UHGV virus genome: UHGV-1376660
Direction: 5' to 3' (one strand)
Length of the DNA stretch: 64,000 bases
From: a virus
Both the position numbers and the translations under genes were made by a program. Positions 1,102 to 57,779 of this stretch are shown here, one piece after another (position 1 is the first letter of the stretch; every line of letters begins with the position of its first letter). Below the pieces are notes generated by a model that saw nothing but the letters and a program-made list of their open reading frames with translations, was not told where the DNA came from and did not search any database.

Positions 1102-1175
1102 TTCTCGCTCCTACAAAAAGGGTGGGCGTATAGCCCACCCTTAAACGGTAGATAATTACTTACCTACTATACTAA

Positions 1176-2051
1176 TCAAATTTTTACGTTGGTCAGCGCG
1201 GCGATAGCCTTGTCGTGCTTGTTCGCCAGAGAGCAGTACCACTTAACGCGGGTACGGGTTGCGTCTTTGTTCTGAACAGTACCGATGTTCTCAACAACGA
1301 TACCGGCGTTTTCACCGCCATACAGACCAGTCACACCGTTCTCTTCGGACAGGTGCAGGCAGTAGATGCTTGCTTTGCCCGCGTCAGTCGGGATGAAGTC
1401 GTTCACGATGAACGGTACACCGTTGTGGCACAGCATCGGACGGCCGAAGTTTTCCATCATGATTTCGGACGGGCCGAGGCTAACGGTACGAAGCAGAGCG
1501 CGATAAGCACGCAGGTGCTCGGAACGCATCATGATGCAGTCTGCGCCCAGATCTTTCACCGCGTCGACCAGCTCGTCGAACATGGAGAAGGTCATGGAAG
1601 CGCCTTCGATGTCGATCTTCTGATTGTCGTGCATCAGCTTCGGAATACCGTCGAATGCTTTGGTGTTGGTGCTGGAGTCGCCCAGAATCAGGTTGCGGCG
1701 GAATGCGCGAGCCAGACCTTTCACCTTCTGACGAACCTGGATTGCCAGCTGGTTGTTGGTGTCGGACATAGTGGTCGCCAGGAATTTGTCGACGTCTACG
1801 TCGCCTGCCAGGATACGCAGTTTCGCAACGTGTTCGGTGAAGGTTGCAGCGCCTTCGGTGATGGTATCGTTCACATCAATGAAGGTTGCTTCGCTCAGGG
1901 TAGCTTCGCGGTTGTAGAGGTGTGCCTTAGAATTAATCTTCATGAAAGGCAGAACAGCGAACAGGTCATCGCGATCGATGATGGTCTCGATCACACCCTG
2001 CTCAAGTTCGTTGTTAGACAGCTTTTCAGCTTCATCACGCAGTAATGGCAT
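1176..2051 (-). CDS. Major capsid protein (HK97 fold, no delta domain)
   Basis: 291 aa; sits after portal and scaffold in the canonical head-module order; size and composition fit HK97-like MCPs. Confidence 0.65.
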   Translation of the reverse strand: MPLLRDEAEKLSNNELEQGVIETIIDRDDLFAVLPFMKINSKAHLYNREATLSEATFIDVNDTITEGAATFTEHVAKLRILAGDVDVDKFLATTMSDTNNQLAIQVRQKVKGLARAFRRNLILGDSSTNTKAFDGIPKLMHDNQKIDIEGASMTFSMFDELVDAVKDLGADCIMMRSEHLRAYRALLRTVSLGPSEIMMENFGRPMLCHNGVPFIVNDFIPTDAGKASIYCLHLSEENGVTGLYGGENAGIVVENIGTVQNKDATRTRVKWYCSLANKHDKAIAALTNVKI

Positions 2052-2077
2052 CTTTCATTTCCCTATGATTTAAGATG

Positions 2078-2968
2078 TTACTTGAGTCCGATTTTCCCCA
2101 GACCGGAGGTCAACTTATCCATAGTCGACTTGCTCTTCGGCTGGTTTACTTTGTGGGTCGGTTTGCTATTGGAACCAGCACCCTGCTTGGCTTCGCTGCG
2201 CAACAGTGCGTCAGCTTCCGGATCTGCACGCAGAATGCGCTCAATCGCGGATTCGAACGGTAACGGTTTGCCTTCACCGTCAACCAGAACTGCACGTTCT
2301 TTCTGACCGGCTGGCTTATCAAAGCCCACAACACTACCATCTTCACCCACTTCGAAATGAGAGCCGTAGATAACGCGAGCCTTAGCCGGAGTCATCAGAA
2401 CTTTGTCACGCAAGAAGGCAGAGCCGCTGAAGGAAGCGCCAACAGTCATTTCGACCAGTTGAGCCTTCAGTGCGGCGTTCTCGCTCTCCAGAGCGGAGTA
2501 GCGTTCGTCGCGCTGTGCCAGTTCAGCCAGGTGCGCTTCGATCATCTGCTTTTTCACAGCATCGAACTCACCACGGCGTTCCAGTTCAGCCTGCTCCGCC
2601 TCCCGACGTGCGGTTTCTGCGGCTTGTTCAGCTTCGAGAAGCTGGCGAGCACGCGCCGGGTCAATATCTCCGTACTGAGCCAGCTGATCGGCCAATGTGC
2701 GCTCTTTCTCTTTGCGCTTCATGTTCTCTTTCAGCAAGTCAGCACCGGCTTTCTTGGACTTACGCAGTTCTGCCAGCAACTCTTCCTGAGTCATACCGGC
2801 ATACTCGTCGTCGTCACCCTTCGGTTGCTCTTTTTGCTCGCCCTGTTTGCCTGGGTCTTGATTGCCCTGCTCGTTGTCTCCAGCAGGAGCACCAGCACCT
2901 CCGCGCTCATGCGCTTCAGCTACATCCATCAGGCCACGACGGGCCATAAGCATTTGCCACAGATTCAT
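2078..2968 (-). CDS. Head scaffolding protein
   Basis: Highly charged, coiled-coil-rich 296-aa protein (EAEQAAETARREAEQAELERR) between portal and MCP. Confidence 0.55.
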   Translation of the reverse strand: MNLWQMLMARRGLMDVAEAHERGGAGAPAGDNEQGNQDPGKQGEQKEQPKGDDDEYAGMTQEELLAELRKSKKAGADLLKENMKRKEKERTLADQLAQYGDIDPARARQLLEAEQAAETARREAEQAELERRGEFDAVKKQMIEAHLAELAQRDERYSALESENAALKAQLVEMTVGASFSGSAFLRDKVLMTPAKARVIYGSHFEVGEDGSVVGFDKPAGQKERAVLVDGEGKPLPFESAIERILRADPEADALLRSEAKQGAGSNSKPTHKVNQPKSKSTMDKLTSGLGKIGLK

Positions 2969-2990
2969 AGAAATTCCTTTTCGTTACTTA

Positions 2991-4565
2991 TCACTCGGTC
3001 TCTTGAGTAGATGAGTCCCCATTCCCTCGGGGTTGATCTTGCCCGCTTTCTTGGGCTATACCTCGATCATAAGTAAGTGCTGACTTATTTTCAAGAGTGT
3101 TAAGATCATTTTTTGGAGGAAATTTCAAGAGATCTTTTTGAAATTCCTTTTGCATCGACTCGGAAATGTTCGGGAAGACCTTCTCGATGAGCATTTCCAT
3201 CTGATGACGACGCACAGAATCAGGCGCCTGGAGCAGCGACAGTTTCTCAGCAACGGCGAACTCGTCAGTCAGACCGCGAATGTCGAAACTTTCCGGGTAC
3301 GCGATCAGAGAGTGGTCTTCATCCAGTTCGACACCCATCCATTTCGCTGCCAGCTGCATCATCTGGCGTTCTGCCCTTTCGAGGCGCTCTGCTTTTGTCA
3401 CCAGCAGACTGTTAACGCGCTGGAAGTCGTACATCTTCGCTGCGCCCGAAGAGTTATCGATGCCCTGTGCGTTATCCTGCTTGGTTCGCTCACCTGCCAC
3501 ACCAACGGAATGGTAGATCTCGTTAATCACCGTCTTAATCGTGGTGATGATCATCTGAGCCTGTTTCGGGTCTGGAGACAGGTAGAATGGCTGATTACCG
3601 CTCTCAGAATCGAAGGTGAAGACGCGTTTTGTCCCCATTTCGAGCACTTTGGTGTGGTTTTCATCGCCCGGCAGCAATGACTGAACCGGGATCGCCAGCT
3701 GGCTGAATGTCTGATCCTGAATAATCGCGTCAAGGTTCGACAGGTAGTTGGCCACGGCGCGGTCAAGATAGGCGATATCATCAATCAACGACGGGCTGAA
3801 ATACGGAGACTCGCTTTCGCCAATGCAATCCACCGGAAACACCGGCACCACGCCAAGATTATGCTGGCCGCTATCCTCCAGAACGACTTTGGCCTGACGA
3901 CGACCGCTATTTCCGGAACCTTTCTTCACTTCTTCACGGAAGAGATACCACTCGTTTTGCGTCCACAGACGGTAACGCTGGTATTCCTGCCCGGTTGACG
4001 TGAACGGATCTTCGTCGTCGCGCGCGATTTCAACAATCAGCGCCCACAACATATTGCCGTCTTCATCCCAGGCAACATCAAGCAGCTGCTGCGGCGAAAT
4101 CCAGTAAGCGTAGGCACGCGCATCATTTTTCTTCTCGTCTGCAACAGACTCAACATCGACGTTCATGGTGCTGTCCACGACAACCCAGATACGGCCATAA
4201 ATGGATGATTGCAGATCGATAGCCGCCATAAACGCATCGATGGAGGCGTTCTGGCGCGTGGCTCGCTTCCAGAAATTGCGGATCTGCTCCGGTGCTTCAT
4301 CAGTGTTGCGGTGAATGACCTCTTTGAAGAGGTATTTGTTGATGAGGTTTACCACTTCGCGCGTATGGTTGAAGCGATAAGCGCGTTCCAGGCGCTCTTT
4401 GAACTCCTGATCGCCCTCTTTGAAGTAACGGAAGATATTGTCGTTGAACCAGGCACGCCCGCCAGCGTAGGTGCTGGCGAGGAAGTCCCAATGTTCTTTT
4501 TTCTTCTCATATTCAGGGTGGCGTCGTGCCACAAGGTCTTTGATTTGCTTGTCAGTCAATTCCAT
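2991..4565 (-). CDS. Portal protein
   Basis: 524 aa, immediately downstream of terminase large subunit; size and position typical of portal. Confidence 0.7.
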   Translation of the reverse strand: MELTDKQIKDLVARRHPEYEKKKEHWDFLASTYAGGRAWFNDNIFRYFKEGDQEFKERLERAYRFNHTREVVNLINKYLFKEVIHRNTDEAPEQIRNFWKRATRQNASIDAFMAAIDLQSSIYGRIWVVVDSTMNVDVESVADEKKNDARAYAYWISPQQLLDVAWDEDGNMLWALIVEIARDDEDPFTSTGQEYQRYRLWTQNEWYLFREEVKKGSGNSGRRQAKVVLEDSGQHNLGVVPVFPVDCIGESESPYFSPSLIDDIAYLDRAVANYLSNLDAIIQDQTFSQLAIPVQSLLPGDENHTKVLEMGTKRVFTFDSESGNQPFYLSPDPKQAQMIITTIKTVINEIYHSVGVAGERTKQDNAQGIDNSSGAAKMYDFQRVNSLLVTKAERLERAERQMMQLAAKWMGVELDEDHSLIAYPESFDIRGLTDEFAVAEKLSLLQAPDSVRRHQMEMLIEKVFPNISESMQKEFQKDLLKFPPKNDLNTLENKSALTYDRGIAQESGQDQPRGNGDSSTQETE

Positions 4566-4598
4566 TTGCTTTTCCTTTCCGTTTAGGTAAGTACTTAC

Positions 4599-5855
4599 CT
4601 ATCTAGATCCGCCAAGAATAACACGATTTTTCACCGGATACCTACGATGAACCGGATAACCCAACGCATCCGCACTGTGTTCGATGCCGCCAGTCTTATC
4701 CATATCGCGTGAGCCTGGCTTGTAGATCACCTTCTCCAGCGAGTCGATGAGGTGTTTGCACTTCGGATCGATGTACAACCGTGTTTCGCCCGAGGCACTC
4801 ATCAACATGCGGTTCACTGCATTCACACGGTCTGCGATCGGCGGGTGCTTCTTCGGATAATCGACTCGAAGGAAACCTTTTTCCTTGAAGATATCGACGT
4901 CCGATTCGCCGCGTGCGTGCTGGCGATACGCACCAGCCGGGTCAGGGAAGATAGTGACCAGAGACTTCCAGCGCCAGAAACGGCGCTCCAGCTCATCACA
5001 CACTTCAGCCGTGTTGGAAGAGAACAGCACAACCTCGTCCACGGCCCACAACTCGCCATTTGGCTGCGGCTGCAGGATGACCGATGACATAGGGTCGATG
5101 TTGAAGTCCTGACCAACCCAGATCGGCAGTTTCGGATTGAACTGGAGTGGCTTCACATGCACATTGCGGTCGAACGGGTAGTAAACGCGTCCGGACATGT
5201 TTTCGAAGCTGGCCAGGTATTCCTGTGCGAACGATTTAGGGTCCATATCGTTCTTCGCTGCTTCGATTTCCGCGCTCGGTACGAACGGAGAATCAGCCGT
5301 AACGAACTGCCAGCTTTTCCACTGCCCCTTGCGTTGCAAATCTTTGTTCTGACCGATAGTCCACAGCTTGTGGAACTCGGAGAAGCCTTTTGGCGTACCG
5401 ATGATCAGCGCACCGCCACGGGTAGAGGACAGTGTCGGACGTAGTACCTTGTACCAGGTGTCCGGCTTCATATCCTGAAATTCATCGAGCACCACAAAGT
5501 GCAGTGCCACACCACGAAGCGTATCGGGCTTATCCGCACCTTTCAGCGCGATTTCAGAGCCGTTCTTCAGCACGATGGTCATCGTGGTGTCGTTTTTCTT
5601 ACGAACCCATTTACGAGGCAGAACTTCCTGCAGGTCATCCCACAAGATCTGGCGAGCCATCTGGTAAGTCGGTGCGACGTACCAGACACGTTGCTTTTTC
5701 TCTTTGGCTGCCGCGCGGATGATGGTGGAGATCGACAACCGGGATTTACCCCAGCGTCGACCCGCACACACCACTTTGAAACGATGTGGCGACTGGAAGA
5801 CTTGCATCTGCCCAGAATGCAGCTGTACGAGACTCAGAGACGACGGGATGGCCAT
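4599..5855 (-). CDS. terL: Terminase large subunit
   Basis: Walker A-like VVCAGRRWGKS near the N-terminus; 418 aa with C-terminal nuclease-like region; follows a small HTH protein. Confidence 0.85.
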   Translation of the reverse strand: MAIPSSLSLVQLHSGQMQVFQSPHRFKVVCAGRRWGKSRLSISTIIRAAAKEKKQRVWYVAPTYQMARQILWDDLQEVLPRKWVRKKNDTTMTIVLKNGSEIALKGADKPDTLRGVALHFVVLDEFQDMKPDTWYKVLRPTLSSTRGGALIIGTPKGFSEFHKLWTIGQNKDLQRKGQWKSWQFVTADSPFVPSAEIEAAKNDMDPKSFAQEYLASFENMSGRVYYPFDRNVHVKPLQFNPKLPIWVGQDFNIDPMSSVILQPQPNGELWAVDEVVLFSSNTAEVCDELERRFWRWKSLVTIFPDPAGAYRQHARGESDVDIFKEKGFLRVDYPKKHPPIADRVNAVNRMLMSASGETRLYIDPKCKHLIDSLEKVIYKPGSRDMDKTGGIEHSADALGYPVHRRYPVKNRVILGGSR

Positions 5856-8121: not shown

Positions 8122-8752
8122 ATTCCACCTTCACGCGTTCTTTGTAGTGCTTGGTGATCTGCATATCCGGGCGCAGCGCGTTCTTCAGGTCTTCGTGGGT
8201 CGTCGCCACCATTACCGTCGCACCAACCTTACGGGCGGCACGCTGGAGGTTCGACGCCACAACCTGGGCGGTTACACGGTCGAGAACAGCGCCAAATTCG
8301 TCGGCTGCCCAGACTTTTGCGCCTGACTCGATCAGCTTGGCGATCTTGAGACGGTATTTCTGGCCGTCAGACATCTCGGATGGCTTGCGCACGAATAGAT
8401 AGGCGTCATTCAATCCGGCCATAGACAGCAGCCCCAGCGCTTCGCTGGTGGTTTTGCCCAGCTGGTCGATGACGTTAACCTCATTGTCGAAGGTAAAGTC
8501 ATCGATGGAGGCTACAGAAAGCCCTTCATCCTTCATCTGGCGTTGCAGCTCGCGCAGCACAACGGATTTACCGGAACCGGATTGGCCGGTGATGTACACC
8601 ACATCGCCCTGCTTCACTTCCAGCTCCAGATTGTCGTAAAGCGTCCACTCTTTTTCGTCCAGGCCAAGACCGAACGATTCGGCAATCTCCAGCGTGCGCG
8701 TGGTTTTGTTCACGCGGGTCTGAAACGATACGTTGATGGTGTATTTGCTCAT
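8114..8752 (-). CDS. Stand-alone ABC-type ATPase (nucleotide-binding domain only)
   Basis: Walker A GQSGSGKS, ABC signature MSDGQKYRL, Walker B VWAADEFG, H-loop TTHE within 212 aa. Confidence 0.7.
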   Translation of the reverse strand: MSKYTINVSFQTRVNKTTRTLEIAESFGLGLDEKEWTLYDNLELEVKQGDVVYITGQSGSGKSVVLRELQRQMKDEGLSVASIDDFTFDNEVNVIDQLGKTTSEALGLLSMAGLNDAYLFVRKPSEMSDGQKYRLKIAKLIESGAKVWAADEFGAVLDRVTAQVVASNLQRAARKVGATVMVATTHEDLKNALRPDMQITKHYKERVKVEYA

Positions 8753-9417
8753 GCAGCCAGCTCCCCAGAAGAAACTTTCTCCGCATACGCCACGAAAGCG
8801 TCTACCCCGCTCTCCCCCGTGATTTCTTCCATGTGGGCAAGCAAATCCCCAACCACAATGGCAGAGCCAGCAGGGAGCGTTTTAAAGCCCAATACGTCGA
8901 TGACGCGGACTTCTTCAGAGGCCACTTCGCGACTGATCTCGGTGTGCTCTTCTTTCTGGCGTTCCGTCTCTTCGCCCAGATCGAGCACCAGAGAGCCGGT
9001 TTCCATCTCTTCGGTCATGCTGCCGACAAGCACGTTCAGCTCGCGCTCTTCAAAACCGAAGACCTCGACGTCGCCCAGCACTAGGGATTCCAGTTCCTGC
9101 TGCAATTTGATGGCGTCGTAGTCAATACTGGCCAGGCGGTTGTCTTCCAGACGCTTCGCCTTCACTTCTTCTTCGCTCAGATCGTCGCGAACGATGACCG
9201 GCACACGCTCCAGACCAGCCAGAAGAGCCGCCTCGCAACGACCGTGGCCAGTAATGATGACGTCATGCTTGTCGACCGTGATCGGCTGGTCAAAACCGCG
9301 CTTTTTGATGGCGGCCGCCAGGTCGCGGATCTGCTGTTCGTCATGTTTTTTGGCGTTCATCTCATACGGGATGAGTTCTGCCGGGTTTCGATAGACGATT
9401 TCAAAGTTTTTGGTCAT
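8749..9417 (-). CDS. ParB/Srx-like nuclease-domain protein (paralog 2)
   Basis: ParB N-domain-like ITVDKHDVIITGHGRCEAALLAGLERVPV; probable start MTKNFEIVYRNP at 9417, overlapping the upstream stop (TAATG). Confidence 0.55.
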   Translation of the reverse strand: MTKNFEIVYRNPAELIPYEMNAKKHDEQQIRDLAAAIKKRGFDQPITVDKHDVIITGHGRCEAALLAGLERVPVIVRDDLSEEEVKAKRLEDNRLASIDYDAIKLQQELESLVLGDVEVFGFEERELNVLVGSMTEEMETGSLVLDLGEETERQKEEHTEISREVASEEVRVIDVLGFKTLPAGSAIVVGDLLAHMEEITGESGVDAFVAYAEKVSSGELAA

Positions 9418-10115
9418 TACATACGCTCCTTGTAGTAGTCGACCAGCCACACCAGGGCTTCACCGGCGTTCTCAATTTCGTTACCGGTATTGATTCCCTG
9501 CTCTTTGATGATGGTTTTGATGGTGTCGGCGACGCGATCTGACGCATCAAACGTCACTTTGAAGCGCATCGTCTGGTGTTCAGCGCCGACTCGCTCGGTT
9601 TTCTCGCGTTTGTCCTCATCGACCGGCTCGTCATCGCCACGGGAGAGCGCTTCCAGCGCTTCAAGATCGATAACGGACGCTTTGGCGAGTGTTGCCGCCA
9701 TTTCGTCGTCATACGGGGCGATATCGGACAACCGGTAGTCGATTTCAGACTGGATTTCTTCGATTAAGCGCTGCAAAGCGACCTGATCGTCTTCGCCGTA
9801 GCGCTCGTTATCGACGAGGGACATCTGTTTGGCCACCAGGTCGTTAATTTTGCCCACGGAGATGACGGGAACCGTTGAAATGCCCTGCTCCATCGCGGCA
9901 CGCCAGCGATGTTCGCCACCGAGGATCTCAAAAACGCCCCCGTCCAGCTCCCGCGCCAGAATTGGCTTAAAAAAGCCCAATTTTTCGATAGAGCCTTTCA
10001 GTTTTTCGAAGTTTTGCGCCCCAACGGAGTTGGTATTCCAGGGATTCGGACGCAGGTTCGCGACTTCCACCTGCAGAATCGTAATTTTCACATCCATAAT
10101 TCTGATACAATCCAT
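9417..10115 (-). CDS. ParB/Srx-like nuclease-domain protein (paralog 1)
   Basis: NPWNTN...ILGGEHRWRAAMEQGISTVPV resembles ParB N-terminal domain boxes. Confidence 0.55.
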   Translation of the reverse strand: MDCIRIMDVKITILQVEVANLRPNPWNTNSVGAQNFEKLKGSIEKLGFFKPILARELDGGVFEILGGEHRWRAAMEQGISTVPVISVGKINDLVAKQMSLVDNERYGEDDQVALQRLIEEIQSEIDYRLSDIAPYDDEMAATLAKASVIDLEALEALSRGDDEPVDEDKREKTERVGAEHQTMRFKVTFDASDRVADTIKTIIKEQGINTGNEIENAGEALVWLVDYYKERM

Positions 10116-10116
10116 T

Positions 10117-10146
10117 GTATAAGTACTTACTTACTATAATAGCCAA
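10117..10146 (+). promoter_or_regulatory. Divergent promoter region with palindrome (GTATAAGTACTTACTTAC) and a perfect TATAAT upstream of the helicase gene
   Basis: TATAAT at 10141-10146; palindrome family member. Confidence 0.4.
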
Positions 10147-12924: not shown

Positions 12925-13515
12925 ATGACTCGTTTAGCCATCTTAGTAACCACCTATATTCTATCATTCTCTGCCAATGCAGTGTCAGATATGGTTGCTG
13001 ACATGCAAAAAACGTACAGCAAGTTCACTACCCTAGACAATGTAAAATACGAGGCCAGAGGAACAGTTCAACCTGTATGGTTCAGGTATTCCGATAACGC
13101 GGAAGAAACACTGATTTCCGGTGAATCAGAACATATGCGCCTTCAAATCATGGGTACAGCTGTCAAAGAAGGAACAAGCACCAACTCTGGCAAGGCTCTT
13201 GTTCCAACCTACGGTCTACTAAATGTGATTGATGGAACTATGTACTGTGATGAGATCGCCAAGAGCGGTTGCCCGATTCATATCCGCGTTGGCAGTAATG
13301 AATCGTTCACGACATACGGCAAAATCGGCAATGATGCGACCGGCAAAGTACTTGTTCTGGACAACGCAGCAACAATTAGGCTTCTAAAAGACATCAAAAA
13401 GACCGCAAAATCAGATATCGACAACAAAACCATTTACATCGAAGCCCCCTTCCTCGTGGCAGGTAGCAAGCAGTTTAAGTTTGGGCTTCTCGACACGCCA
13501 CTTAAGGTAGACTAA
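12925..13515 (+). CDS. Hypothetical secreted protein (Sec signal peptide)
   Basis: N-terminus MTRLAILVTTYILSFSANA-VSD is a typical signal peptide. Confidence 0.5.
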   Translation: MTRLAILVTTYILSFSANAVSDMVADMQKTYSKFTTLDNVKYEARGTVQPVWFRYSDNAEETLISGESEHMRLQIMGTAVKEGTSTNSGKALVPTYGLLNVIDGTMYCDEIAKSGCPIHIRVGSNESFTTYGKIGNDATGKVLVLDNAATIRLLKDIKKTAKSDIDNKTIYIEAPFLVAGSKQFKFGLLDTPLKVD

Positions 13516-14039
13516 TGACGATCACAGACATTACATACGGCATCCCAGCAGAGGTCTGGCCCCGCGACTACTCTAACGTGGAGTTTAGTTTGCAGTTCCT
13601 ACGGGCAAGGAATATACCTGTAAGGGTCACGATCGATGATGGTCAGACGTTTTGTCTTTACGTTATTGGTCTGCTTACCGCACGCAATAAGCTAGATCTT
13701 TCTCCCGTTATAGGAAGTAAAGAACATCGTGTTCGTCTTCCATTGGAGCGAGTTAGCACCATAGAAACAATTACACCTGTCGAAGTGGACAAGATGTTTA
13801 CAGGTAGGCTCACTGTACACCCTGACTATGTGGACAATCGGCCATCACGCCGCGATTTCTTCAAAATTTGTCGTCAAGCTCATGAGGCGCAAAAGTCTAT
13901 AAGGGTCTACATGGCGGATGGCCGTGAAATTGAGGGGTGTTCGTTAGGCGTTGATGCCTGTCAGGTCGCAATGAGAGTTGGCGAGCGCGGACGAGCGATA
14001 GTTCTCTTCGATTGGGTCGAACGGATTTTACCGTTTTAA
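13515..14039 (+). CDS. Hypothetical protein, translationally coupled (ATGA overlap) to the secreted protein gene
   Basis: 174-aa ORF; start overlaps upstream stop. Confidence 0.45.
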   Translation: MTITDITYGIPAEVWPRDYSNVEFSLQFLRARNIPVRVTIDDGQTFCLYVIGLLTARNKLDLSPVIGSKEHRVRLPLERVSTIETITPVEVDKMFTGRLTVHPDYVDNRPSRRDFFKICRQAHEAQKSIRVYMADGREIEGCSLGVDACQVAMRVGERGRAIVLFDWVERILPF

Positions 14040-17391: not shown

Positions 17392-17518
17392 TTTTATCTC
17401 CCTATAGTTGGTGGTTTTTATATTATTAAAATAGGTAGGCACTTACAATCCAAGCAAGCAAAAAGCCCCGAAGGATGGACGGGGCTGTCGTAGGGACGAC
17501 TAATCGCTTTTGCACATG

Positions 17519-26594: not shown

Positions 26595-26652
26595 GTGTTT
26601 ACCTCTGATAAAGTGGCTCTATTCTTACATAAATTAGGTAAGTATTTACCTA

Positions 26653-28339
26653 TCATTTTACGCGTTTGAAAACGTATACGCTGACAGTGATTCCGGTGTC
26701 TTCAAACTCGTCAGTAAACGACTTCCCTTTGGCATAAACGTAATTATCCAGCGTCATCCAGTTCAGAACTGGCGCATCACCCGGCAGTACTGCCACCAGT
26801 CGCCCGCCGACTTTAAGATGCTCCAGCGCGGCCAGCGTATGCTCTCTGTGACGGCCAAGAGAGTAGGGCGGGTTCATGACGATTTTGTCGAACTGATAGC
26901 CTGCGTTGTCCTCAGACCACTTCATGAAGTCACAGCAGACCGTATTTGTGTACCCCTTGCCAAGCAGGATATCAGCGAAGAGAGGTGCGACTTCTATGCA
27001 GGTAACGTCTTCCGGATTGGCGTCGATGCAGGCCAACAGATCTCCGCGCCCGGCTTCAGGCTCCAGCAGCTTCTCACCTGGCTTCAGCTCGATGGCTCTG
27101 GCAACGTACTCCGCTATCAAACGTGGGGTAGGGTAGAACTGGTGTGATTTTGTATCCGGTATTAAGCCGGTGGCCACAATCGTATTGAGCGTATGGCCGA
27201 TCTCATACGGGAACTGCCAGTGCTTTTTCTCCTGCACGCCGCCAATGAAGTTCAGTGTGCGCTCAAGCTCTTCCACCTGTGACTTCTGTAGGTTGGAATC
27301 AGAGAAGTACCAGACGCCTTTGTCTTTGCTGAATCGCCCGTCGCGCAGCGCGGTACGAACCGGCTCGGAGATCGTCTTCTGGATTAACCCGAACTCTTTT
27401 GGTGCCCGTGTTTTGGGTGCAGTACGGCATGGCGCCGGGATTGCTGCAGGCATACTGTAAGCCAGCACCTCATTCAGCTTCCAGGCCACGTCAGGATGTA
27501 TTTCAAAGTGAACGTTGCCGTTCTTGAACATCTTCACGCGCATCAGGTTTCCGTCGACATTCATCCAGTCACCGGTCTGGCAGTCGTTTGCCCGGTACGC
27601 AGCTGATAGCATCTCAGTTGTGCGGTTGATGGTGATGAACTCTTTGTGTGCGAAGAAATGAAGCATGACGCGCAGGTCGTCGATGTAGTCCTCTTTCCGG
27701 TAGTTCACGCTGACGCTGTCCCGCCAGAACTCGGAAATGCAGTTGGCGATGATCAGACGCTCGCTAAAGCCGTTCGTCTTATTGGTCTTGTGGGCAGGAC
27801 TCAGCGCTTTAAACAAGCCATACACGCGCTCAGAGAGATATTTGTGCCTGTCATTCAGCAGATTGAGCATCGTTGGGATGACCGTTTCTGCTTTAAACTC
27901 CGGCACACCAACGAACTCCTTAACCTTCATCTGGTAGCCGGTTCTGTCAGTCCTGATGGTCTCCTGCTTGCCCTCGATAAACTGCTCACGCCACTCGTCG
28001 CGGCGGGAAGCTGGCATGATCAGCAGAACGTTTGTCATATCCGTGACCTTCTTCCAGTACTCGGCCCAGATATTCTGTTTCACCCATTCAAGGTCGACCT
28101 TGTCCAGCCAGGCTCTGTTAAAGCGTGTGCGCTCGTCATCCGGCCGGTGGTTGAGTCGCAGCAGGCGGTTAATCATGTTGTGGCGTTCGTCGCCATAAAC
28201 GAAGTCGTGAACCTGATGCATGAATGCGATCTCTTTCTCGCACTCGGCCACAATTTCGTGGATGACGTTCATTTCCTGCCGGTAGTCGATATCAGTGTTT
28301 GGGGTGATAGCGTCAATGATGGAAAGGGCTGTATTCATG
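26653..28339 (-). CDS. Large DNA methyltransferase: C-terminal gamma-class N6-adenine MTase domain (FYPTP...EAGRGDLL...NPPY) fused to a ~370-aa N-terminal domain of unknown function
   Basis: Motifs FYPTP, LEPEAGRGDL, NPPY in the C-terminal third; probable ATG start MNTALS (the track's upstream extension uses a TTG). Confidence 0.7.
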
Positions 28340-30901: not shown

Positions 30902-30933
30902 AAAATGATAGGTAAATACTTACCTATCATTTT
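30902..30933. promoter_or_regulatory. 22-bp palindrome element AAAATGATAGGTAAATACTTACCTATCATTTT (family consensus ATAGGTAAGTACTTACCTAT)
   Basis: One of at least 16 copies in the window, always intergenic. Confidence 0.6.
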
Positions 30934-31595: not shown

Positions 31596-32122
31596 AATAT
31601 TAAAAATTTTTAGAAAAGAAAAACTTACTTCCCAGAACAGGTTTTAATAAAACCTGAACTGAACGAACGAAGTGAGTGAAGTTCACCTCGAACGAAGTGA
31701 GAGGTTGTCTTTTCAGGTAATACTCTCCCAGGGAGGTGAGTACAAAATTTCCTCACCAACCTGGTCGTTACATAACCTGAAAAGTTATGACCTAAGTCTA
31801 CTGCCAGCTTAGGCTTGGGAAGTTATGGATGACAGCACCCCAGAACCGAGATCTTCCCACACTTTATGAAGGGGAGTACTGGATTCAACCTCTCGAAACA
31901 CTCCAGACTCGACAATCATAAAGTGACCCTTCTCTCTGCCCACTTTGGTTCCCCCTTCCCCAACCCCTAAACGGTGCCGGTTCTACGCTGGTAGTGAGCT
32001 TTTTAAACCTGACGCCAGTGACGCTATCCCCCACCCATCAGGTCGAGCTGCCGGAATCAATCCGGAAAGCGGGTAGATTTTATCACTGGCGATCTGCGTT
32101 TTAAATGGTAAGTACTTACCGA

Positions 32123-32353
32123 TTATTTTGATTGATTATTTTCTCGACCATGAAGCTGGACGTTCAGGGCAAACACCTCATTGATGAGTTCCCCTAACAG
32201 CTGCTCCACCAGCTCTTTGTGCTCGCCTGAATGAAGACATTTGAGCGACCATTCGTAGAGACTGAAAGCCTTATCGCGATCTTTCATCATGTCGCGCACT
32301 TTGGCCAGAAAATCGCTCTCAACGAGCGCTACGACGTTCGTCGGGTATACCAT
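32123..32353 (-). CDS. Hypothetical small protein
   Basis: 76-aa ORF downstream of the second copy of the ~90-bp promoter element. Confidence 0.35.
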   Translation of the reverse strand: MVYPTNVVALVESDFLAKVRDMMKDRDKAFSLYEWSLKCLHSGEHKELVEQLLGELINEVFALNVQLHGRENNQSK

Positions 32354-33149: not shown

Positions 33150-33334
33150 TATTTTGCTCTGATAGGTAAATACTTACCTATTTTTTCATTTAATCCAACG
33201 GATAGCAAACAAAGAAGAACGCGCCAGATTCGCAAACGGGAAGCTCTCTGGCGCGTTTTATCGATGCTGGGTATGCAATTAGCTTACCCAGCGTCCTAAA
33301 GCTCTCAGGGGGCTTTAGATCGGGTAGGGGAACA

Positions 33335-38003: not shown

Positions 38004-38161
38004 ACAAGATAAGTAAGTACATACATATTATTTTATACAAGTTTATCTGTCAGAAGTGTGTAAGGCTAGGAGGGGAGTAAAAAAAATGGTGGCTCTTAGG
38101 CCACCATTGCAATGAGCAATTAAGAACTTGGACAATAAAACACGCCCAGGCAATATATAAT

Positions 38162-38189
38162 GATAAGTAGATACTTACAATTATTTTTT
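38162..38189. promoter_or_regulatory. Palindrome-family element GATAAGTAGATACTTACAATTATTTTTT (a second degenerate copy at 38017-38037)
   Basis: Sequence inspection. Confidence 0.45.
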
Positions 38190-42698: not shown

Positions 42699-42710
42699 GT
42701 ATCACCCAAT

Positions 42711-42737: not shown

Positions 42738-42743
42738 CATGTT

Positions 42744-42769
42744 AATAGATAAGTACTTACCTATCAATT
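42744..42769. promoter_or_regulatory. Palindrome-family element AATAGATAAGTACTTACCTATCAATT
   Basis: Sequence inspection. Confidence 0.55.
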
Positions 42770-42775
42770 ACCGAC

Positions 42776-43345: not shown

Positions 43346-43356
43346 TTTTGGTCTCC

Positions 43357-44103
43357 TTACCACGTAGCCCAGGTTGGGCATTCCATTAGTTTCTGTTCAA
43401 GTGTCTTCTCCGGCTCGCGAGTTGGCGGCTTCGGAATGTCGCTAACAACATGAATGCTATCGTTGGTTAGAACGCCTGCAGCAATATCTGCATCAATCAT
43501 GCTCTGGCCGATGAAATGCCGCATGATGTCGATCAGATGGCGTGCAGCCGTTTCATTCGCGCTGAATACATGGGGGAGAAGAACTTCAATAACCGCTACT
43601 TCACATCCCTCCTCGTAAAAGCAGAGTTTCGCCCGCTTTGAAATTGGCGCGTGTCGGTCATAGTCAACAGAGAAGCTGGCGAAAGCAGCACCAGGCATTG
43701 CAACGTGATCCGCGCGTGCGTTAGCGTGTCGAATCAGATTAGTGAATGCGGTGCTGATGTGCGTCTCCATCGCATTGAAGAGCGCATTTTCTTGGATGTT
43801 CAGCGTTCCGGTTTCAGGAATCACAACGAACCCCGGCCCAGAATGTGGGAGATATCCACCTTCCGTAAATGGATTAATAAGGATCGGCGCAGTGCTTCCT
43901 GACGGCAGCATAGACAAACTCGGCATCAACGGAGTCGATGACAACAGACTGGTTAATACCGAGAACTGGTCGTCATTGATGTTTTCGTTTTTCCACAAAA
44001 GTGCAGGCGCAGCTGCTTTTGCCGTATGGTGGTTTATCAGCTTTATAGACTGCATCACGGCAAACATCTGCAAAAACTGCGTGCGGCTCAAGTTAAACGA
44101 CAT
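43357..44103 (-). CDS. Hypothetical protein
   Basis: 248-aa ORF. Confidence 0.4.
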   Translation of the reverse strand: MSFNLSRTQFLQMFAVMQSIKLINHHTAKAAAPALLWKNENINDDQFSVLTSLLSSTPLMPSLSMLPSGSTAPILINPFTEGGYLPHSGPGFVVIPETGTLNIQENALFNAMETHISTAFTNLIRHANARADHVAMPGAAFASFSVDYDRHAPISKRAKLCFYEEGCEVAVIEVLLPHVFSANETAARHLIDIMRHFIGQSMIDADIAAGVLTNDSIHVVSDIPKPPTREPEKTLEQKLMECPTWATW

Positions 44104-46009
44104 AGCTGCGACCCTCTTTGACTTCGACTGTGATGGTTTCCCGGAACCACGATTTCATCTCTTTGTGGGAGATGATCATCACTGTGCCGCGTTCACGCGC
44201 TTTGGCTTCCAGAATCCCCATGAGACGCTCCAGACCGGCAGTGTCGAGCGCGTCGTCAATTTCATCGCCGATAAACAGCTCGATATTCTTACTGGCGCGA
44301 CTGGCAACCAGATCCTGCAAGGCAAGAGAGCACGCAATGCGTACCTTACGCTTCTCGCCACCAGACAACGTCTGGAAGGATTTGCTGGAGCCTGTTTTGG
44401 TTACGCTGATATTGAATTTGTCGCGATACTCGCCTTTCTTCGTTGTCTCCATTGTCGACCATTCGGCAACGATATTGCCGTCCGACAGCGTGTTGAGATA
44501 CTCCGCAGTCCTGATGTTCAGGAAAGGTGTAACAGACGTCAGGATGTGTGAACGCACGCCTGCTGGGGAGTAAACCTGGCGAGCTTTCTCCAGCAACAGA
44601 GCCTGTTCCTGAATGCTTTTTAACTCTTTTTTAAGTACTGCATGATTAGATTTATTGGCAGCCAGGTTGTCTTCATGGCGCTTAATGACAGCCAGAAATG
44701 GGTTTACCTCTGCCATGATGCGATTCACGTCAGTACGCGCCCGCGCCACCATCGCTTCGACGGCCACAACTTCACGTTCTCGATGACGCAGCGCACTTAG
44801 CTCATTGGTCAGGCGTTCGATTCTGGCGATGATTTCTGAGACGTCGGGTGTGGCTGCGACCAGTGCAGACTCGATGCCGAGCGCTTTCTCAAGACGAGCT
44901 TTGTGTTGAGCCACTGCCGCTGCTGATGCCTGCGCCTGGCCGATCTCATTACGCGCTTGTTCAATGAAACTCTCCTTCACGGTGGACAAATCTTCTTCGC
45001 AGTAGGGCTTTCCGCACGTAACACAAGGTGCTCCGACCTTTGTGTTGACCTCTTCTGCTTTGGTTTTAAACGAGCGAGCACGGTTCATGGACTCGTTCTG
45101 TGCCGCTTCTGAAGTGCGGATGCTTGAGCGGATCTCCGTAATCGCACCGCGCACCTTCAGCAGTTTGGCGTCATGCTCTTCTTTGGAGGCCAGCTTGCTG
45201 CGTTCGCCAGCAATCGCGTTTTCCGTATCCCGGATCTGTTCCGGCAGCGAGCGAATTTCCATCACGACTTCAGACAGCGTTACCTCCGCGCCAGCCAAAT
45301 CGACGCGGGCCTTGTCCAGACGTTCGCCGCGATCGCGCTCCCAACTATCAGAGGACGCTTTGGCCGCCTCAATCTCTGACTGCGCGGTCTCGATAAGCGT
45401 GAGACAGGCGTCCATTTTGGATTTGGTAACATCCATGCGTGCGGCAGCTGCATTAGCACGCTCGCGAGCAATGGCATAGGCTCGCGTTAACCGGTCGACG
45501 CCAGCGGCTTCTTCAACGATGGTTTTGAGGTTCTTGTCGGACATACCCGGCAGATCAGGCATTGCTTCCTGACTGGCGTAGATGGACGCCATGAACACCT
45601 CTTTCGATGCACCAATCAGGCGTTCAACGAACTCCTGCGTCAGTGTGTCTTTGCCTTTGGTCATATCACCGTCTTCGCCACGAACGATCAGCCGGTTCTT
45701 GAACTCTTTGTGTTTGCGGTGGCGAATGATGGCGTAACGCTTTCCTTCATCCTCAACAGTCACCATCACGCGACAGTTTTTCTCGTGGCCTGTAGAGAGC
45801 ACGTCGTCACCTTTGACGCCATGCGCAGTTTCGCCATACAGACACCACATCAGGCTGTTCATCAAAGTCGATTTGCCCGCGCCATTGCTGGCAGCGGAAG
45901 AGTCGCCACTGTTAACCCCCTGAATGAGCACCAGACCGCGTTGGTCTAACTCAACTTCGGCGCTGGCTAACGCCATGAAGTTCTCAACCTGGAGCTTTAG
46001 AAATTTCAT
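44093..46009 (-). CDS. SbcC/Rad50-like ATPase (T4 gp46-like)
   Basis: N-terminal Walker A NGAGKST, long coiled coils, CxxC zinc hook (CVTCGKPYC), C-terminal signature LSGGEKRKV and D-loop GDEIDDALD. Confidence 0.85.
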   Translation of the reverse strand: MKFLKLQVENFMALASAEVELDQRGLVLIQGVNSGDSSAASNGAGKSTLMNSLMWCLYGETAHGVKGDDVLSTGHEKNCRVMVTVEDEGKRYAIIRHRKHKEFKNRLIVRGEDGDMTKGKDTLTQEFVERLIGASKEVFMASIYASQEAMPDLPGMSDKNLKTIVEEAAGVDRLTRAYAIARERANAAAARMDVTKSKMDACLTLIETAQSEIEAAKASSDSWERDRGERLDKARVDLAGAEVTLSEVVMEIRSLPEQIRDTENAIAGERSKLASKEEHDAKLLKVRGAITEIRSSIRTSEAAQNESMNRARSFKTKAEEVNTKVGAPCVTCGKPYCEEDLSTVKESFIEQARNEIGQAQASAAAVAQHKARLEKALGIESALVAATPDVSEIIARIERLTNELSALRHREREVVAVEAMVARARTDVNRIMAEVNPFLAVIKRHEDNLAANKSNHAVLKKELKSIQEQALLLEKARQVYSPAGVRSHILTSVTPFLNIRTAEYLNTLSDGNIVAEWSTMETTKKGEYRDKFNISVTKTGSSKSFQTLSGGEKRKVRIACSLALQDLVASRASKNIELFIGDEIDDALDTAGLERLMGILEAKARERGTVMIISHKEMKSWFRETITVEVKEGRSYVV

Positions 46010-47437: not shown

Positions 47438-47464
47438 ATATAAGTAAATACCTACTTATTTTTA
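47438..47464. promoter_or_regulatory. Palindrome-family element TATAAGTAAATACCTACTTATTTTTAT
   Basis: Sequence inspection. Confidence 0.45.
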
Positions 47465-51846: not shown

Positions 51847-51876
51847 GATAGGTAGATACTAACTTATATATTTTTT
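51845..51876. promoter_or_regulatory. Palindrome-family element ATGATAGGTAGATACTAACTTATATATTTTTT
   Basis: Sequence inspection. Confidence 0.45.
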
Positions 51877-52162: not shown

Positions 52163-52230
52163 GTGTCTTCTCCTTGTTGGTAAGTACTTATTTATATTAA
52201 TGTGCGCCATGCGGCGCACAATCATTGTGT

Positions 52231-54220: not shown

Positions 54221-54248
54221 AAATGATAAGTAAGTACTTATATATTTT
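54221..54248. promoter_or_regulatory. Palindrome-family element AAATGATAAGTAAGTACTTATATATTTT
   Basis: Sequence inspection. Confidence 0.5.
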
Positions 54249-55629: not shown

Positions 55630-56624
55630 CAGCAGTACCTCTCAAATGGCAGAACAAACACTTCCAGATCTTCCAGAAACGACCGGAAATTCAGCTCGTA
55701 ACACATCTGTTCGAAGGCATTCATGTCGCGTGCGCCTTTAATCGACTCGATTTCGCTGGGTGGGAATTTTGTGTCGATAAGGTTCATCAGCATCATGTTG
55801 CGCTTAAAGGCTTCGAGCATCCGGCAGCCCGTCTTCTCGTTGAAGGCGTTCTTTGCCAGCTTGTTGAATGCCGTCTTATAGCGACCTTTGTTGATGACAA
55901 TGGAGCCGTCGTTAATGCCGCGTACCATTGCGGCCACGCTTCCCCATTCATGAAGCAGCTCTTTCGCGCCACCATCACCAATGCCGCCGACGCCTTTGAT
56001 GTTGTCCGAGTTATCGCCCTGCAACGCTTTCGCTTCCAGAAACGCTCGTGGCGTTGGCAGACCGGTCAGCTCTGCGAACTGTTCGAAGTTCACCTGCTTG
56101 TGCTTGGCATCTTCACGCAGGCTTACCCAGCTCACATTCTCGCGAACCAGCTGGAGCCAGTCGCCATCGCCAGTCAGCAGGTAGATGCGATCGACGGTCG
56201 GCTGCGGAGCCAGGCGAGAGACCAGCATTCCAGCCAGGTCGTCCGCTTCTGCGTCCTTTGCAATGAGTTGGTTAACGCCCAGCGCGGTCATCATTTTCAA
56301 GATGTACGGCTTCTGGATGGCAAAGCCTTCTTTCATCTTCTTCATATCCGGGTCGTCATCGCGATTCGCTTTGTACTCCGGGTAGAAGTCGCGACGTTTG
56401 TCGCTGAATCCATCCCACAAGATCATTGGGCGGGCATGGAGAATTGAGGCGTAACGACGAACGTTCTTCACGAAGCCAAAAGCCGCCTGAACTTCCATCT
56501 CGCCGTTGTGTAATTTGTCGGATTGCTGGTGGTAATAGCCCAGGCTGTTACCGTCCACAAAGAGATAATTCACCGGTACACTCCTTCCAAAAAGTAAGGC
56601 GTCCGTAGACGCCTTACTGGTCAC
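55629..56624 (-). CDS. 5'-3' exonuclease / flap endonuclease (T5 D15 / Pol I 5'-exo family)
   Basis: LFVDGNSLGYY, AKDAEADDLAGML, LLTGDGD, QGDNSDNIKGVGGIG (H3TH) motifs. Confidence 0.85.
   Translation of the reverse strand: MTSKASTDALLFGRSVPVNYLFVDGNSLGYYHQQSDKLHNGEMEVQAAFGFVKNVRRYASILHARPMILWDGFSDKRRDFYPEYKANRDDDPDMKKMKEGFAIQKPYILKMMTALGVNQLIAKDAEADDLAGMLVSRLAPQPTVDRIYLLTGDGDWLQLVRENVSWVSLREDAKHKQVNFEQFAELTGLPTPRAFLEAKALQGDNSDNIKGVGGIGDGGAKELLHEWGSVAAMVRGINDGSIVINKGRYKTAFNKLAKNAFNEKTGCRMLEAFKRNMMLMNLIDTKFPPSEIESIKGARDMNAFEQMCYELNFRSFLEDLEVFVLPFERYC
56594..56617 (-). terminator. Rho-independent terminator (GTAAGGCGTCCGTAGACGCCTTAC + T5 on the minus strand)
   Basis: Follows the SSB stop. Confidence 0.55.
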
Positions 56625-56633
56625 GTTATGGGA

Positions 56634-57662
56634 TTACAGAGCGTCCAGTTCAGCCAGCAGGTCGTCGAGACCTTCGTCAGCTGGTGCAGATGCAGCGGCA
56701 GCAGATGCTGAAGCACTTGCAGCTGCGGCGGCTTCCGGAGCTTTAACTTCTTCCGGTTTAGTTTCCGGTTTGAACTCAGCTTCAGCGGCACGCAGGATCT
56801 CTTCATCAACCAGGCTGGTGGACTCTGGAGCCGGAGTGTGTGCTGTAGCGACAGCAGCTGCGCCTTCCGTATGACCAGTGATAGAGCCAAAGCCTGGCAG
56901 TTCAGCAGCAGCTGATTTTGCAGCGGAAGAAATGGCCGGAGAGGACATTGTTGCTGCCGGAGCCGCAATACCAATCAGACGACCCATAGTGCGAGCCGTA
57001 GACAGCAGACGAGTTTCGTCAGCCTGGTTCGCGTATGCGATCAGATCGTGTTGGGTAGTCCAGAGCTTCTCAGGAATGTCGCCTTTGTAGACTTTACGTT
57101 TCGGGGATACGTCGTACTTGGTGTCACGACCGGAACCGGTACGCTTAATCAGGAACGCATAGCCTTCTTCTTTGCTCAGTGGGTTGCCGATATCATCCGC
57201 AATATCTTCGGACATCACTTTGCAGATATCGTCGAAGACCGTAGACGGCAGCTCAATCAACTGGCATTTCTCTGCGTCTGCAAAGTCTTCACGCGCAGAC
57301 AGAACACCGTTGACCAGATAACGCGGTGTAGCACGCATACTGTTAATGCGCTCTTCCATCGCTTTGTTGCCCTTAAAGCGAGCACGACCTTCCATAACCA
57401 TCTCACACAGCTGGCAAGCGTGGCCGTGGGTGTGCTGTTCGCAGATGTAGGCGGTTGTTACATCTTTGCCTTCCTCATTCTGATGCTTAACGTAGTGCAT
57501 ACCGAATGTCTGGAAGAACACGCCATTCGGGTCGTCCTTGTTCGGAAAAATGCGCAGATAGTTATTGCCGTCTTTCAGACGGGTCAAATCAACGTTATTG
57601 CCACGTTTAGAAGCAATATCGCCACGGGTCTTGTTAAGCAGATCAAGTAATGACTTAGACAT
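56634..57662 (-). CDS. T4 gp32-like single-stranded DNA-binding protein
   Basis: NNYLRIFPNKDDPNGVFFQTFGMHYVKH parallels gp32 [25 protein letters not shown]; Cys/His cluster (CEQHTHGHACQLC) at the gp32 zinc site; acidic C-tail DEGLDDLLAELDAL. Confidence 0.7.
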   Translation of the reverse strand: MSKSLLDLLNKTRGDIASKRGNNVDLTRLKDGNNYLRIFPNKDDPNGVFFQTFGMHYVKHQNEEGKDVTTAYICEQHTHGHACQLCEMVMEGRARFKGNKAMEERINSMRATPRYLVNGVLSAREDFADAEKCQLIELPSTVFDDICKVMSEDIADDIGNPLSKEEGYAFLIKRTGSGRDTKYDVSPKRKVYKGDIPEKLWTTQHDLIAYANQADETRLLSTARTMGRLIGIAAPAATMSSPAISSAAKSAAAELPGFGSITGHTEGAAAVATAHTPAPESTSLVDEEILRAAEAEFKPETKPEEVKAPEAAAAASASASAAAASAPADEGLDDLLAELDAL

Positions 57663-57746
57663 GTATTTCTCCTTGTTGTGATTGTGGCCATTGGCGCTAT
57701 GCGCGTTGGGCGTTCGCTTATTCGTGGCTCTTTCGAGCGAGAAGAA

Positions 57747-57779
57747 TGATAGATCAGTACTTACTTACGATCTAGCATA
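57747..57779. promoter_or_regulatory. Palindrome-family element ATGATAGATCAGTACTTACTTACGATCTAGCAT
   Basis: Sequence inspection. Confidence 0.45.

Follow-up and report, generated by a model that had tools for sequence, protein, structure and literature searches.

A degenerate palindrome dispersed through an SSU5-type phage-plasmid: a probable operator family and its candidate repressor

The element and its genes

We describe here a short palindrome that recurs between the genes of the virus genome UHGV-1376660, of which a stretch of 64,000 nucleotides was analysed (this whole stretch is called the window below). Over positions 26000-46000 the window is 98.0% identical to Salmonella phage SSU5, which matches it in the reverse strand, and up to 99.7% identical to plasmids of about 110 kb from Enterobacter hormaechei, its closest plasmid relatives; the same interval is matched by 792 plasmids from Klebsiella, Escherichia, Enterobacter, Yersinia and Salmonella. 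Judged by these identities, the window is about 60% of an SSU5-type phage-plasmid, and the view of an earlier note on this DNA that the element is a phage-plasmid is borne out by its place in the SSU5 family. The SSU5-type group counts about 800 sequenced plasmids from Klebsiella, Escherichia, Enterobacter and Salmonella, and includes pHCM2 of Salmonella Typhi and relatives of the Yersinia pestis pMT1 backbone. We found no description of lysogeny control in SSU5-type phage-plasmids in the searchable literature, and looking there for SSU5 regulation or for the string of the motif itself gave nothing relevant. The genes of the window lie mostly on the minus strand. According to the SSU5 annotation, genes for the capsid and the terminase come first, then a variable accessory region, and then genes of nucleotide metabolism, recombination and replication.

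Copies of the palindrome

The earlier note listed 16 positions of a "perfect 22-bp palindrome" in the window. The string behind it, ATAGGTAAGTACTTACCTAT, is 20 nt long and has no exact occurrence there; a copy of the motif does, in all 16 cases, start within 0-8 nt of the listed position. Four matches in the window differ from the string by one mismatch, eight by three or fewer and 14 by four or fewer; at six or fewer mismatches, 20 overlapping matches collapse to 17 loci, with 1-6 mismatches per copy. The 14-bp core GGTAAGTACTTACC is exact only twice, at 4586 and 32107. One additional copy, missing from the earlier list, lies at 3069-3088 inside the portal gene, so that the statement that all copies lie between genes is right by inspection for 16 of the 17 and wrong for this one; a crude automatic gene call puts 13 of the 17 in intergenic DNA (binomial P = 5e-10). 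Related genomes have 20-24 copies each at up to five mismatches (SSU5, Escherichia phage Cyrano, Klebsiella pJN2-26 and Enterobacter NZ_CP077310). The window copies, with the promoter-like sequences at them, are as follows; mismatches are counted against ATAGGTAAGTACTTACCTAT, bits are scores on the weight matrix, and the "SlmA rule" is the binding rule of a host protein, both described below.

1148..1167, copy GTAGATAATTACTTACCTAC: 4 mismatches, 24.8 bits; 9 nt past the stop of the major-capsid gene; on the minus strand a G+C-rich terminator hairpin comes next, ahead of the following gene; orthologous copies in SSU5, Cyrano and Klebsiella
3066..3094, minus strand, sigma-70-like promoter TTGAAA-17-TATGAT: 10/12 of consensus; copy 3069 is its spacer
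3069..3088, copy in the 3' end of the portal gene: 4 mismatches, 27.8 bits; kept in SSU5, Cyrano and Klebsiella
4583..4602, copy TTAGGTAAGTACTTACCTAT: 1 mismatch, 29.3 bits; overlaps the stop codon of the terminase large subunit gene and ends 17 nt ahead of the portal ATG; core GTAAGTACTTAC, 12/12 on the SlmA rule
10115..10134, weak copy: 6 mismatches, 16.6 bits; in the divergent region between the ParB-like operon (minus strand) and the helicase/FljA-like operon (plus strand)
10135..10140, plus strand, putative TATAAT hexamer: directly after copy 10115 and facing the helicase operon; no good -35 at 16-18 bp
17431..17450, borderline copy ATAGGTAGGCACTTACAATC: 6 mismatches, 12.7 bits; on the minus strand past a terminator and 39 nt ahead of a Shine-Dalgarno sequence (SD) and ATG
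26634..26653, copy TTAGGTAAGTATTTACCTAT: 2 mismatches, 32.6 bits; abuts the stop of the DUF4942 gene, 39 nt to the next ATG
30908..30927, copy: 1 mismatch, 35.4 bits; centre of a near-perfect 32-bp palindrome, 30902-30933
32104..32123, copy AATGGTAAGTACTTACCGAT: 3 mismatches, 22.8 bits; core 12/12 on the SlmA rule
33162..33181, copy ATAGGTAAATACTTACCTAT: 1 mismatch, 35.1 bits; 12 nt ahead of the adenine methyltransferase ATG
38009..38028, copy: 3 mismatches, 29.8 bits; just upstream of the thymidylate synthase gene
38163..38182, weak copy: 6 mismatches, 14.8 bits; same intergenic region, 154 bp from copy 38009
42745..42764, copy ATAGATAAGTACTTACCTAT: 1 mismatch, 34.2 bits; upstream of nrdA
42739..42767, minus strand, sigma-70-like promoter TTGATA-17-TAACAT: 9/12 in the promoter scan; overlaps copy 42745
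47440..47459, copy: 4 mismatches, 28.4 bits; between GNAT acetyltransferase and sbcD-like genes
51848..51867, copy: 4 mismatches, 23.4 bits; ends 1 nt ahead of a minus-strand ATG
52176..52195, copy: 4 mismatches, 24.9 bits; 13 nt ahead of an SD and ATG, preceded by a hairpin
54226..54245, copy ATAAGTAAGTACTTATATAT: 3 mismatches, 29.7 bits
54223..54251, minus strand, sigma-70-like promoter TTGAAA-17-TATCAT: 10/12; copy 54226 is its spacer
57749..57768, copy: 4 mismatches, 26.0 bits; upstream of the gene for a gp32-like single-stranded-DNA-binding protein
57746..57774, minus strand, promoter-like TAGATC-17-TATCAT: 8/12; overlaps copy 57749

Three strong copies (30908, 32104 and 33162) crowd into about 2.3 kb (30902-33181). 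Chance or base composition as the source of the set was ruled out by shuffling both the whole window and its intergenic DNA alone: dinucleotide shuffles of the window give 0.01 matches at up to four mismatches and 0.8 at up to six, and the AT-rich intergenic DNA holds 11, 11 and 13 matches at up to four, five and six mismatches against 0.01, 0.06 and 0.4 expected after shuffling. When a weight matrix trained on the sites of other genomes is run with a threshold of 14.2 bits (the 95th percentile of shuffle maxima), 16 window sites exceed it (14.8-35.4 bits) and the next unrelated match reaches 6.3 bits; site 17431, at 12.7 bits, is borderline. On the coding strand the consensus is an A-rich stretch followed by atg-ATARGTAAGTACTTACYTAT-cat and a weaker T-rich stretch, and the palindrome around the string first quoted likewise extends to atg-ATAGGTAAGTACTTACCTAT-cat. 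The matrix is near-symmetric, conservation is unbroken across 20 bp, and the flanks ATAG/CTAT are conserved as strongly as the core. Copies usually start 0-40 nt past the upstream stop codon, some overlapping it, and end 1-130 nt ahead of the next start codon; many occupy short intergenic gaps within operons, a trait shared with the L5-type stoperators considered below.

A palindrome in such places could act in DNA or in RNA, and we compared mirrored positions in 105 distinct sites, with the 3' columns shuffled as control. Watson-Crick cells number 643 (632 +/- 7 in the column shuffles), double changes at mirrored positions are 43, barely above the 35.6 +/- 3.8 of the shuffles, and on the coding strand G-U-type mismatches (54) are about as frequent as A-C-type mismatches (49). 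The predicted hairpins of 16 of the 17 copies have energies of 0 to -7.8 kcal/mol, are A+U-rich and lack a U-tract; only copy 30908 forms a stable one (-14.9 kcal/mol). G+C-rich terminators with U-tracts do adjoin copies (before 17431, 52176 and 54226, after 1148 and 42745), and a terminator scan calls these separate hairpins, not the copies themselves. No Rfam family matched the motif. Because the half-sites vary independently, the hairpins are weak, real terminators lie next door and Rfam has no match, we conclude from these comparisons that the motif is a DNA site for a symmetric or dimeric protein and not a terminator or RNA hairpin. The earlier note had preferred a dimeric protein site, in agreement with this and with the symmetry of the matrix; its suggestion that some copies might be bidirectional terminators does not fit the weak hairpins, the lack of covariation and the separate terminators.

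The motif in related elements

The copies of the relatives lie at orthologous junctions of the structural, lysis, replication, recombination and nucleotide-metabolism modules, and in the Klebsiella genome the commonest 9-mers are pieces of the motif. Among IMG/VR contigs, only SSU5-like ones have it in multiple copies; unrelated phages sharing it, which might have pointed to a co-occurring regulator, were sought there, but the matches outside the family were single copies or turned out to be distant SSU5 relatives. In a distant relative whose terminase large subunit (TerL) is 52% identical, TAAGTAAGTACTTACTTA has been retained, both at the terminase/portal junction and in other places. A syntenic 111-kb plasmid of Acinetobacter baumannii has 27 copies of a variant, aTTATTA-GTAAGCGCTTAC, several of them directly followed by TATAAT or TAATAT, and it also encodes a homologue of the XRE-like protein discussed below. 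As at copy 10115 of the window, there is a copy in the equivalent gap between ParB-like and helicase genes of the Acinetobacter relative. The motif family is a real, strongly non-random and family-wide set of sites. As a separate observation, the Acinetobacter relative NZ_CP016299.1 encodes a sigma-70-family factor of its own (30780-31445), between a MoxR-type ATPase gene and dnaE; no counterpart is present at that locus in the enteric members.

Promoters at the copies

On the coding strand, 17 of 78 sites from four genomes have a promoter scoring at least 8.5/12 whose -10 hexamer falls on motif position 18 or 21; the opposite strand has a -10 at neither position in any of the 78 (at positions 16 and 20 there are two each). 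The hexamers fall in two registers. In the first, the -35 lies just upstream and the motif makes up the 17-bp spacer (54251-54223, 3094-3066 and 57774-57746); in the second, the -35 uses the first three bases of the motif (TTGATA-17-TAACAT, 42767-42739, which an independent promoter scan also lists). The arrangement at 3066-3094 is found as well in the Salmonella, Escherichia and Klebsiella relatives SSU5, Cyrano and pJN2-26, and TTGAAA-17-TATCAT, too, is kept in other genomes. The promoter at 54251-54223 is the joint-best match in the 40-59 kb interval, tied with a plus-strand match at 58422-58450 (10/12), and a terminator (54279-54259) stands immediately upstream of it. Overlap with a promoter is clear for about 5-8 orthologous groups, and at other copies no promoter is convincing. 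Where usable hexamers stand 17 bp apart, a protein occupying the spacer should act as a repressor, and the motif is therefore likely to be an operator.

The copy upstream of nrdA shows an odd order of motif, terminator and gene. The terminator hairpin 42738-42715 follows the promoter 42767-42739 directly, within one base, and the predicted start would lie inside the 5' arm of the hairpin. This may account for the order, as transcripts arriving from upstream would stop at 42715-42738 and those begun at promoter 42739-42767 would read into nrdA.

A candidate repressor

The best candidate for the protein that binds these sites is a small XRE/CI-like protein of about 128 amino acids (PHROG 8, with weak helix-turn-helix matches in Pfam), whose gene stands beside the integrase gene and is divergent from a small cro-like gene. 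The XRE-like gene maps some 4.6 kb past the end of the window in the closest complete plasmid. About 790 related plasmids carry it; the phage isolate SSU5 does not. Its expression in Cyrano lysogens exceeds background 10-fold, and the authors list it as a putative repressor; the other genes above background there are toxin-antitoxin, partition-linked and accessory genes (PMC9928086). Apart from the repressor gene, and possibly the helicase operon, these lysogen-expressed genes have no strong motif copy directly upstream, and the operons that are preceded by the motif are not on the list. This pattern fits repression in the prophage state. In the Enterobacter, Escherichia and Klebsiella elements the promoter of the XRE-like gene, TTTACA-16-TAATAT, is directly followed by a copy, CTGGTAAGTGCTTACCGAT, which suggests autoregulation; window copy 32104 has the same flank variant as this copy.

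The Enterobacter sp. plasmid pCP102 offers a comparison in which both partners differ. Its TerL is 90% identical but its repressor only 48%. The 25 flank-matched sites of pCP102 keep ATAGGTA...TACCTAT, those compared site by site being at orthologous positions, and their half-site positions 8-9 read GT, GC or GG in 34 of 50 and AG in 2 of 50; AG dominates in five other genomes. The recognition helix of the pCP102 repressor is NANNLSN instead of NANNLSL. We fetched 98 repressor loci from IMG/VR, and the helix could be read in 97: four helix types ending in S-L-I-K (90 loci) pair with AGT, and NANNLS-N-IK (7 loci) pairs with G at position 8. Motif and repressor thus appear to change together, as expected of a repressor/operator pair, and the sequence comparisons show a specificity that belongs to the element. 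The changed centre of the pCP102 sites and its divergent repressor therefore make the XRE-like protein the best candidate, an assignment that is the best inference and not a proof.

The phage isolate SSU5 lacks the integrase, the XRE-like repressor and the cro-like module of the plasmid forms (NZ_CP077310.1 96620-98580 in the plasmid form with which it was compared) and has kept all the operators, as would fit a derivative whose lysogeny control has been lost.

Proposed regulation

We propose, with a probability of roughly 60%, that the copies are operators for one dimeric repressor, encoded by the phage-plasmid, that would silence about 25 lytic promoters. The degenerate 20-bp palindrome ATARGTAAGTACTTACYTAT occurs some 25 times per genome (16-17 times within the window), mostly in short gaps between lytic-cycle genes. 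Many copies sit exactly in the 17-bp spacer, or over the -35 or -10 edge, of a sigma-70-type promoter facing the downstream genes, where a bound protein would shut out RNA polymerase; at copies where no promoter is recognisable it could stop elongation instead. In this way the operons for structure, lysis, replication, recombination and nucleotide metabolism would be kept silent while the element is maintained as a plasmid, and the most probable binder would be the XRE/CI-like protein of about 128 amino acids encoded beside the integrase. What the sequences themselves show is the motif with its enrichment, placement, conservation and lineage-specific change; protein binding, repression and the identity of the repressor are all inferred from them. 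A genome-wide regulon under one repressor, with the logic of P1 C1, had been put forward in the earlier note, and it appears to be the best reading of the promoter-spacer operators, the copy at the repressor promoter and the covariation.

Several points weigh against this proposal. Promoter-like matches are not enriched overall (12 found, 15.2 in shuffles), and several copies, such as 4583 at the terminase/portal junction, have no convincing promoter. A single XRE-type dimer does not usually have a site conserved over 20 bp with no relaxed centre. Since the core matches what the host protein SlmA recognises, the sites could be bound by a host protein as well, or by it alone. The XRE-like gene lies outside the window, and its presence in this replicon is deduced from relatives. 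Finally, the covariation comes from one lineage (pCP102-like) and represents one evolutionary event, and the ParB-like (74-76% identical) and FljA-like (56-63%) proteins of pCP102 differ as well.

Alternative binders and functions

The alternative to be taken most seriously involves SlmA, the nucleoid-occlusion factor and division regulator of the host. In its E. coli consensus, GTGAGTACTCAC, G, T, A and G are required at positions 1, 2, 4 and 5, position 3 may be any purine (a change of G to A gives a dissociation constant of ~60 nM versus ~50 nM) and position 6 any pyrimidine (PMC3020112); the 20-bp E. coli consensus used in vitro is GTAAGTGAGCGCTCACTTAC (PMC4423959). The 12-bp core of the motif, GTAAGTACTTAC, meets every one of these preferences, that is, the rule GT[R]AG[Y], and the motif and GTAAGTGAGCGCTCACTTAC have their flanking T-A in common. 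Two window copies score 12/12 on the rule, and 12 positions score at least 11/12 against 1.5 in shuffles; the core of the Acinetobacter variant departs from that of the motif at position 6 alone, which is tolerant, the annotation of the element contains no TetR-like gene, and SlmA bound at a promoter can repress (PMC5519180). Copies of the window type are predicted to be good SlmA sites. It is conceivable, though rather unlikely, that the operators double as high-affinity SlmA sites, co-occupied by the host protein or marking plasmid and phage DNA as "nucleoid". We found no paper in a literature search that links SlmA with phage-plasmids.

That the copies are SlmA-binding sites (SBS) in the full sense, with SlmA as the main binder that silences promoters or couples the DNA to FtsZ inhibition, we regard as unlikely. 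We once favoured SlmA as the primary binder for the exact fit to its specificity and the deep conservation of the core, and demoted it on the changed core of pCP102, a plasmid of an Enterobacter host: at the flank-matched sites this core, GTAG[T/C]T..., violates positions 4 and 5, and the recognition helix of SlmA is reported to be conserved, including in Enterobacter (PMC3020112). The specificity therefore seems to track the element, and SlmA is probably not the binder that defines the family. The ATAG/CTAT flanks, too, are as conserved as the core, and E. coli SBS are mostly intragenic (2 of 24 are intergenic; PMC5519180), whereas the present copies are almost all intergenic and linked to promoters.

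A second family of candidates is encoded within the window itself, where two tandem genes with ParB-N domains, followed by ABC-type ATPase genes, lie on the minus strand directly upstream of the terminase genes (8749-10115). The copies might be parS- or OB-like sites for one of these two ParB-family proteins (9417-10115 and 8749-9450), which would act in the manner of KorB of RK2 or of Noc. Sites of ParB, Noc and KorB are zero-spacer palindromes of 13-16 bp in many copies, the first ParB-like protein aligns with Spo0J residues 13-161 (which we take to include the helix-turn-helix region), and the proteins are conserved throughout the family, with the tandem arrangement kept as far as the Acinetobacter relatives. 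A copy lies in the divergent region between the ParB-like and helicase genes of both enteric and Acinetobacter elements, a link that is positional only. On the other hand, the ParB-like genes point the same way as the late genes and do not figure among those expressed in Cyrano lysogens, and are therefore improbable as the lysogenic silencer; moreover, the first ParB-like protein is just 39-42% identical between elements in which the core is unchanged and 74% identical where the core has changed. We consider a ParB-family binder quite unlikely.

The position of the palindrome in promoters could also be read in the opposite sense, as the site of a lytic-cycle activator that replaces the -35 element. 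The late promoters of P1 have a 9-bp inverted repeat centred near -22, used by Lpa, and the present palindrome is centred about -19.5 to -22.5 from the predicted start and is followed by -10-like TATCAT, TATGAT or TATAAT. The recognisable promoters, however, already have good -35 hexamers (TTGAAA, TTGATA) at the optimal 17-bp spacing and should therefore be active unaided; the -10-like flank occurs on both sides, hence it is part of the palindrome; and no Lpa-like activator was identified. An activator is thus improbable.

Still less can be said for the FljA-family protein encoded at 13515-14039 on the plus strand. The family match is strong (Pfam PF03614, E = 1.7e-68; PHROG "transcriptional repressor"), and the gene, found in about 830 related plasmids, is in an operon opposite to the lytic genes. 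Its alleles are nevertheless only 63-83% identical among elements that have the same motif and 70% identical between plasmids 99.7% identical elsewhere, tblastn (E <= 1e-4) did not detect it in the Acinetobacter relative, which keeps the core, and it is not on the Cyrano lysogen-expressed list, all of which make it a very doubtful binder. FljA-like and ParB-like proteins were both ranked low on the Cyrano expression and allele-identity comparisons. As for the gene itself (by family a "repressor of phase-1 flagellin"), the window allele is 70% identical to that of a plasmid 99.7% identical over 26-46 kb of the window, which suggests a swapped or fast-evolving regulatory cassette.

Finally, it is scarcely credible that the copies work at the RNA level, be it as terminators (intrinsic or bidirectional), as processing sites or as REP-like stabilisers of 3' ends: palindromic, intergenic and often 0-40 nt past a stop codon they are, and copy 30908 does fold well, but this candidate was rejected on the folding energies of the other 16, the lack of excess compensatory changes or of a G-U over A-C bias, the real terminators beside five copies and the lack of an Rfam match.

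Accessory region and other repeats

The window between 10000 and 26000 has a G+C content of 0.42-0.51 (about 0.52-0.55 in its flanks), and contains many small genes; one part of it is on the plus strand and differs from both SSU5 and the plasmids closest to the window. Another box that is dispersed, and oriented, is aAtaACACCAACAA-GAAAACAAnTTGTTTAa, which occurs at window positions 16399, 16891, 17841, 22583, 28349, 29072, 40306, 53078 and 61718, with weaker examples at 14221, 20217, 23013, 23329 and 25215. It stands about 0-25 nt upstream of the SD/ATG of small minus-strand genes, for the most part in the accessory region, which has few copies of the main palindrome, and is also found in pCP102 and in a Klebsiella plasmid. 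Another regulator, such as the FljA-family protein, may act on this box.

Unrelated low-G+C viral contigs in IMG/VR contain single perfect 20-bp palindromes, GTAAGTAAGTACTTACTTAC, that also fit the SlmA rule (contigs L009, L013, L028 with two copies, L029, L030, L033, L040, L042, L056, L088 and L116). In three of the contigs with GTAAGTAAGTACTTACTTAC, a homologue of SSU5_114/CYRAN_108 is encoded about 0.7 kb away.

Comparison with known systems

In kind, the proposed system is akin both to the dispersed P1 operators and to the stoperators found in cluster A mycobacteriophages; the site and the candidate protein differ from both. In P1, one repressor, C1, acts at more than a dozen scattered operators, several of which overlap promoters, and so governs many operons round a plasmid prophage as is proposed here. 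Its sites, however, are asymmetric and 17 bp long, with no sequence relationship to the present motif, and C1 is a 283-amino-acid protein of another family; here we have a 20-bp palindrome and a small XRE-like candidate. Cluster A phages have 24-36 stoperators (bound by gp71 in L5), placed in short gaps between genes and in many cases in contact with a stop or start codon; through them the entire prophage is silenced. The specificities of repressor and site co-evolve between immunity groups, to which the concerted change in pCP102 is a parallel. Stoperators are 13-bp, asymmetric and orientation-dependent, whereas the present sites are symmetric and many lie inside promoters, not only within transcription units.

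KorB of the IncP plasmid RK2 exerts global repression through a zero-spacer palindrome (OB) repeated about 12 times round the plasmid, partly at promoters, a layout like the present one; KorB is a ParB-family CTPase, and the ParB-like genes here look late and are not expressed in the lysogens of a relative. The P1 Lpa box is likewise an inverted repeat about 20 bp upstream of the start and beside a -10 hexamer, but P1 late promoters have no -35 and need the activator, and the promoters here have usable -35 hexamers. SBS share with the motif the core rule GT[R]AG[Y] and the flanking T-A. They differ in that E. coli has 24-52 sites in 4.6 Mb, mostly intragenic, as against about 25 in 105 kb here, intergenic and promoter-linked, and in that the specificity here shifts with the lineage of the element inside a host genus whose SlmA helix is conserved. 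Overall, the idea of the earlier note, a dimeric site under a global repressor, is supported in its architecture by these sequence data.

Implications

For a family of phage-plasmids as widespread as this one, the analysis gives a regulon map of about 25 predicted operators per genome, many of them inside identifiable promoters, together with a named candidate repressor. pCP102 would represent a natural specificity variant of the operator/repressor type. The match to SlmA sites is an unexpected lead from a widespread plasmid family to the control of host cell division. If the operators do double as SlmA sites, an SSU5-type plasmid at about five copies per cell would offer several dozen to about 100 SlmA-compatible sites, a number comparable to that of the chromosome or above it, and in pCP102 and its lineage one would have a natural escape variant. 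Nucleoid occlusion in the host might then be tied to the silencing of the prophage, to plasmid segregation or to the block of cell division during lytic growth.

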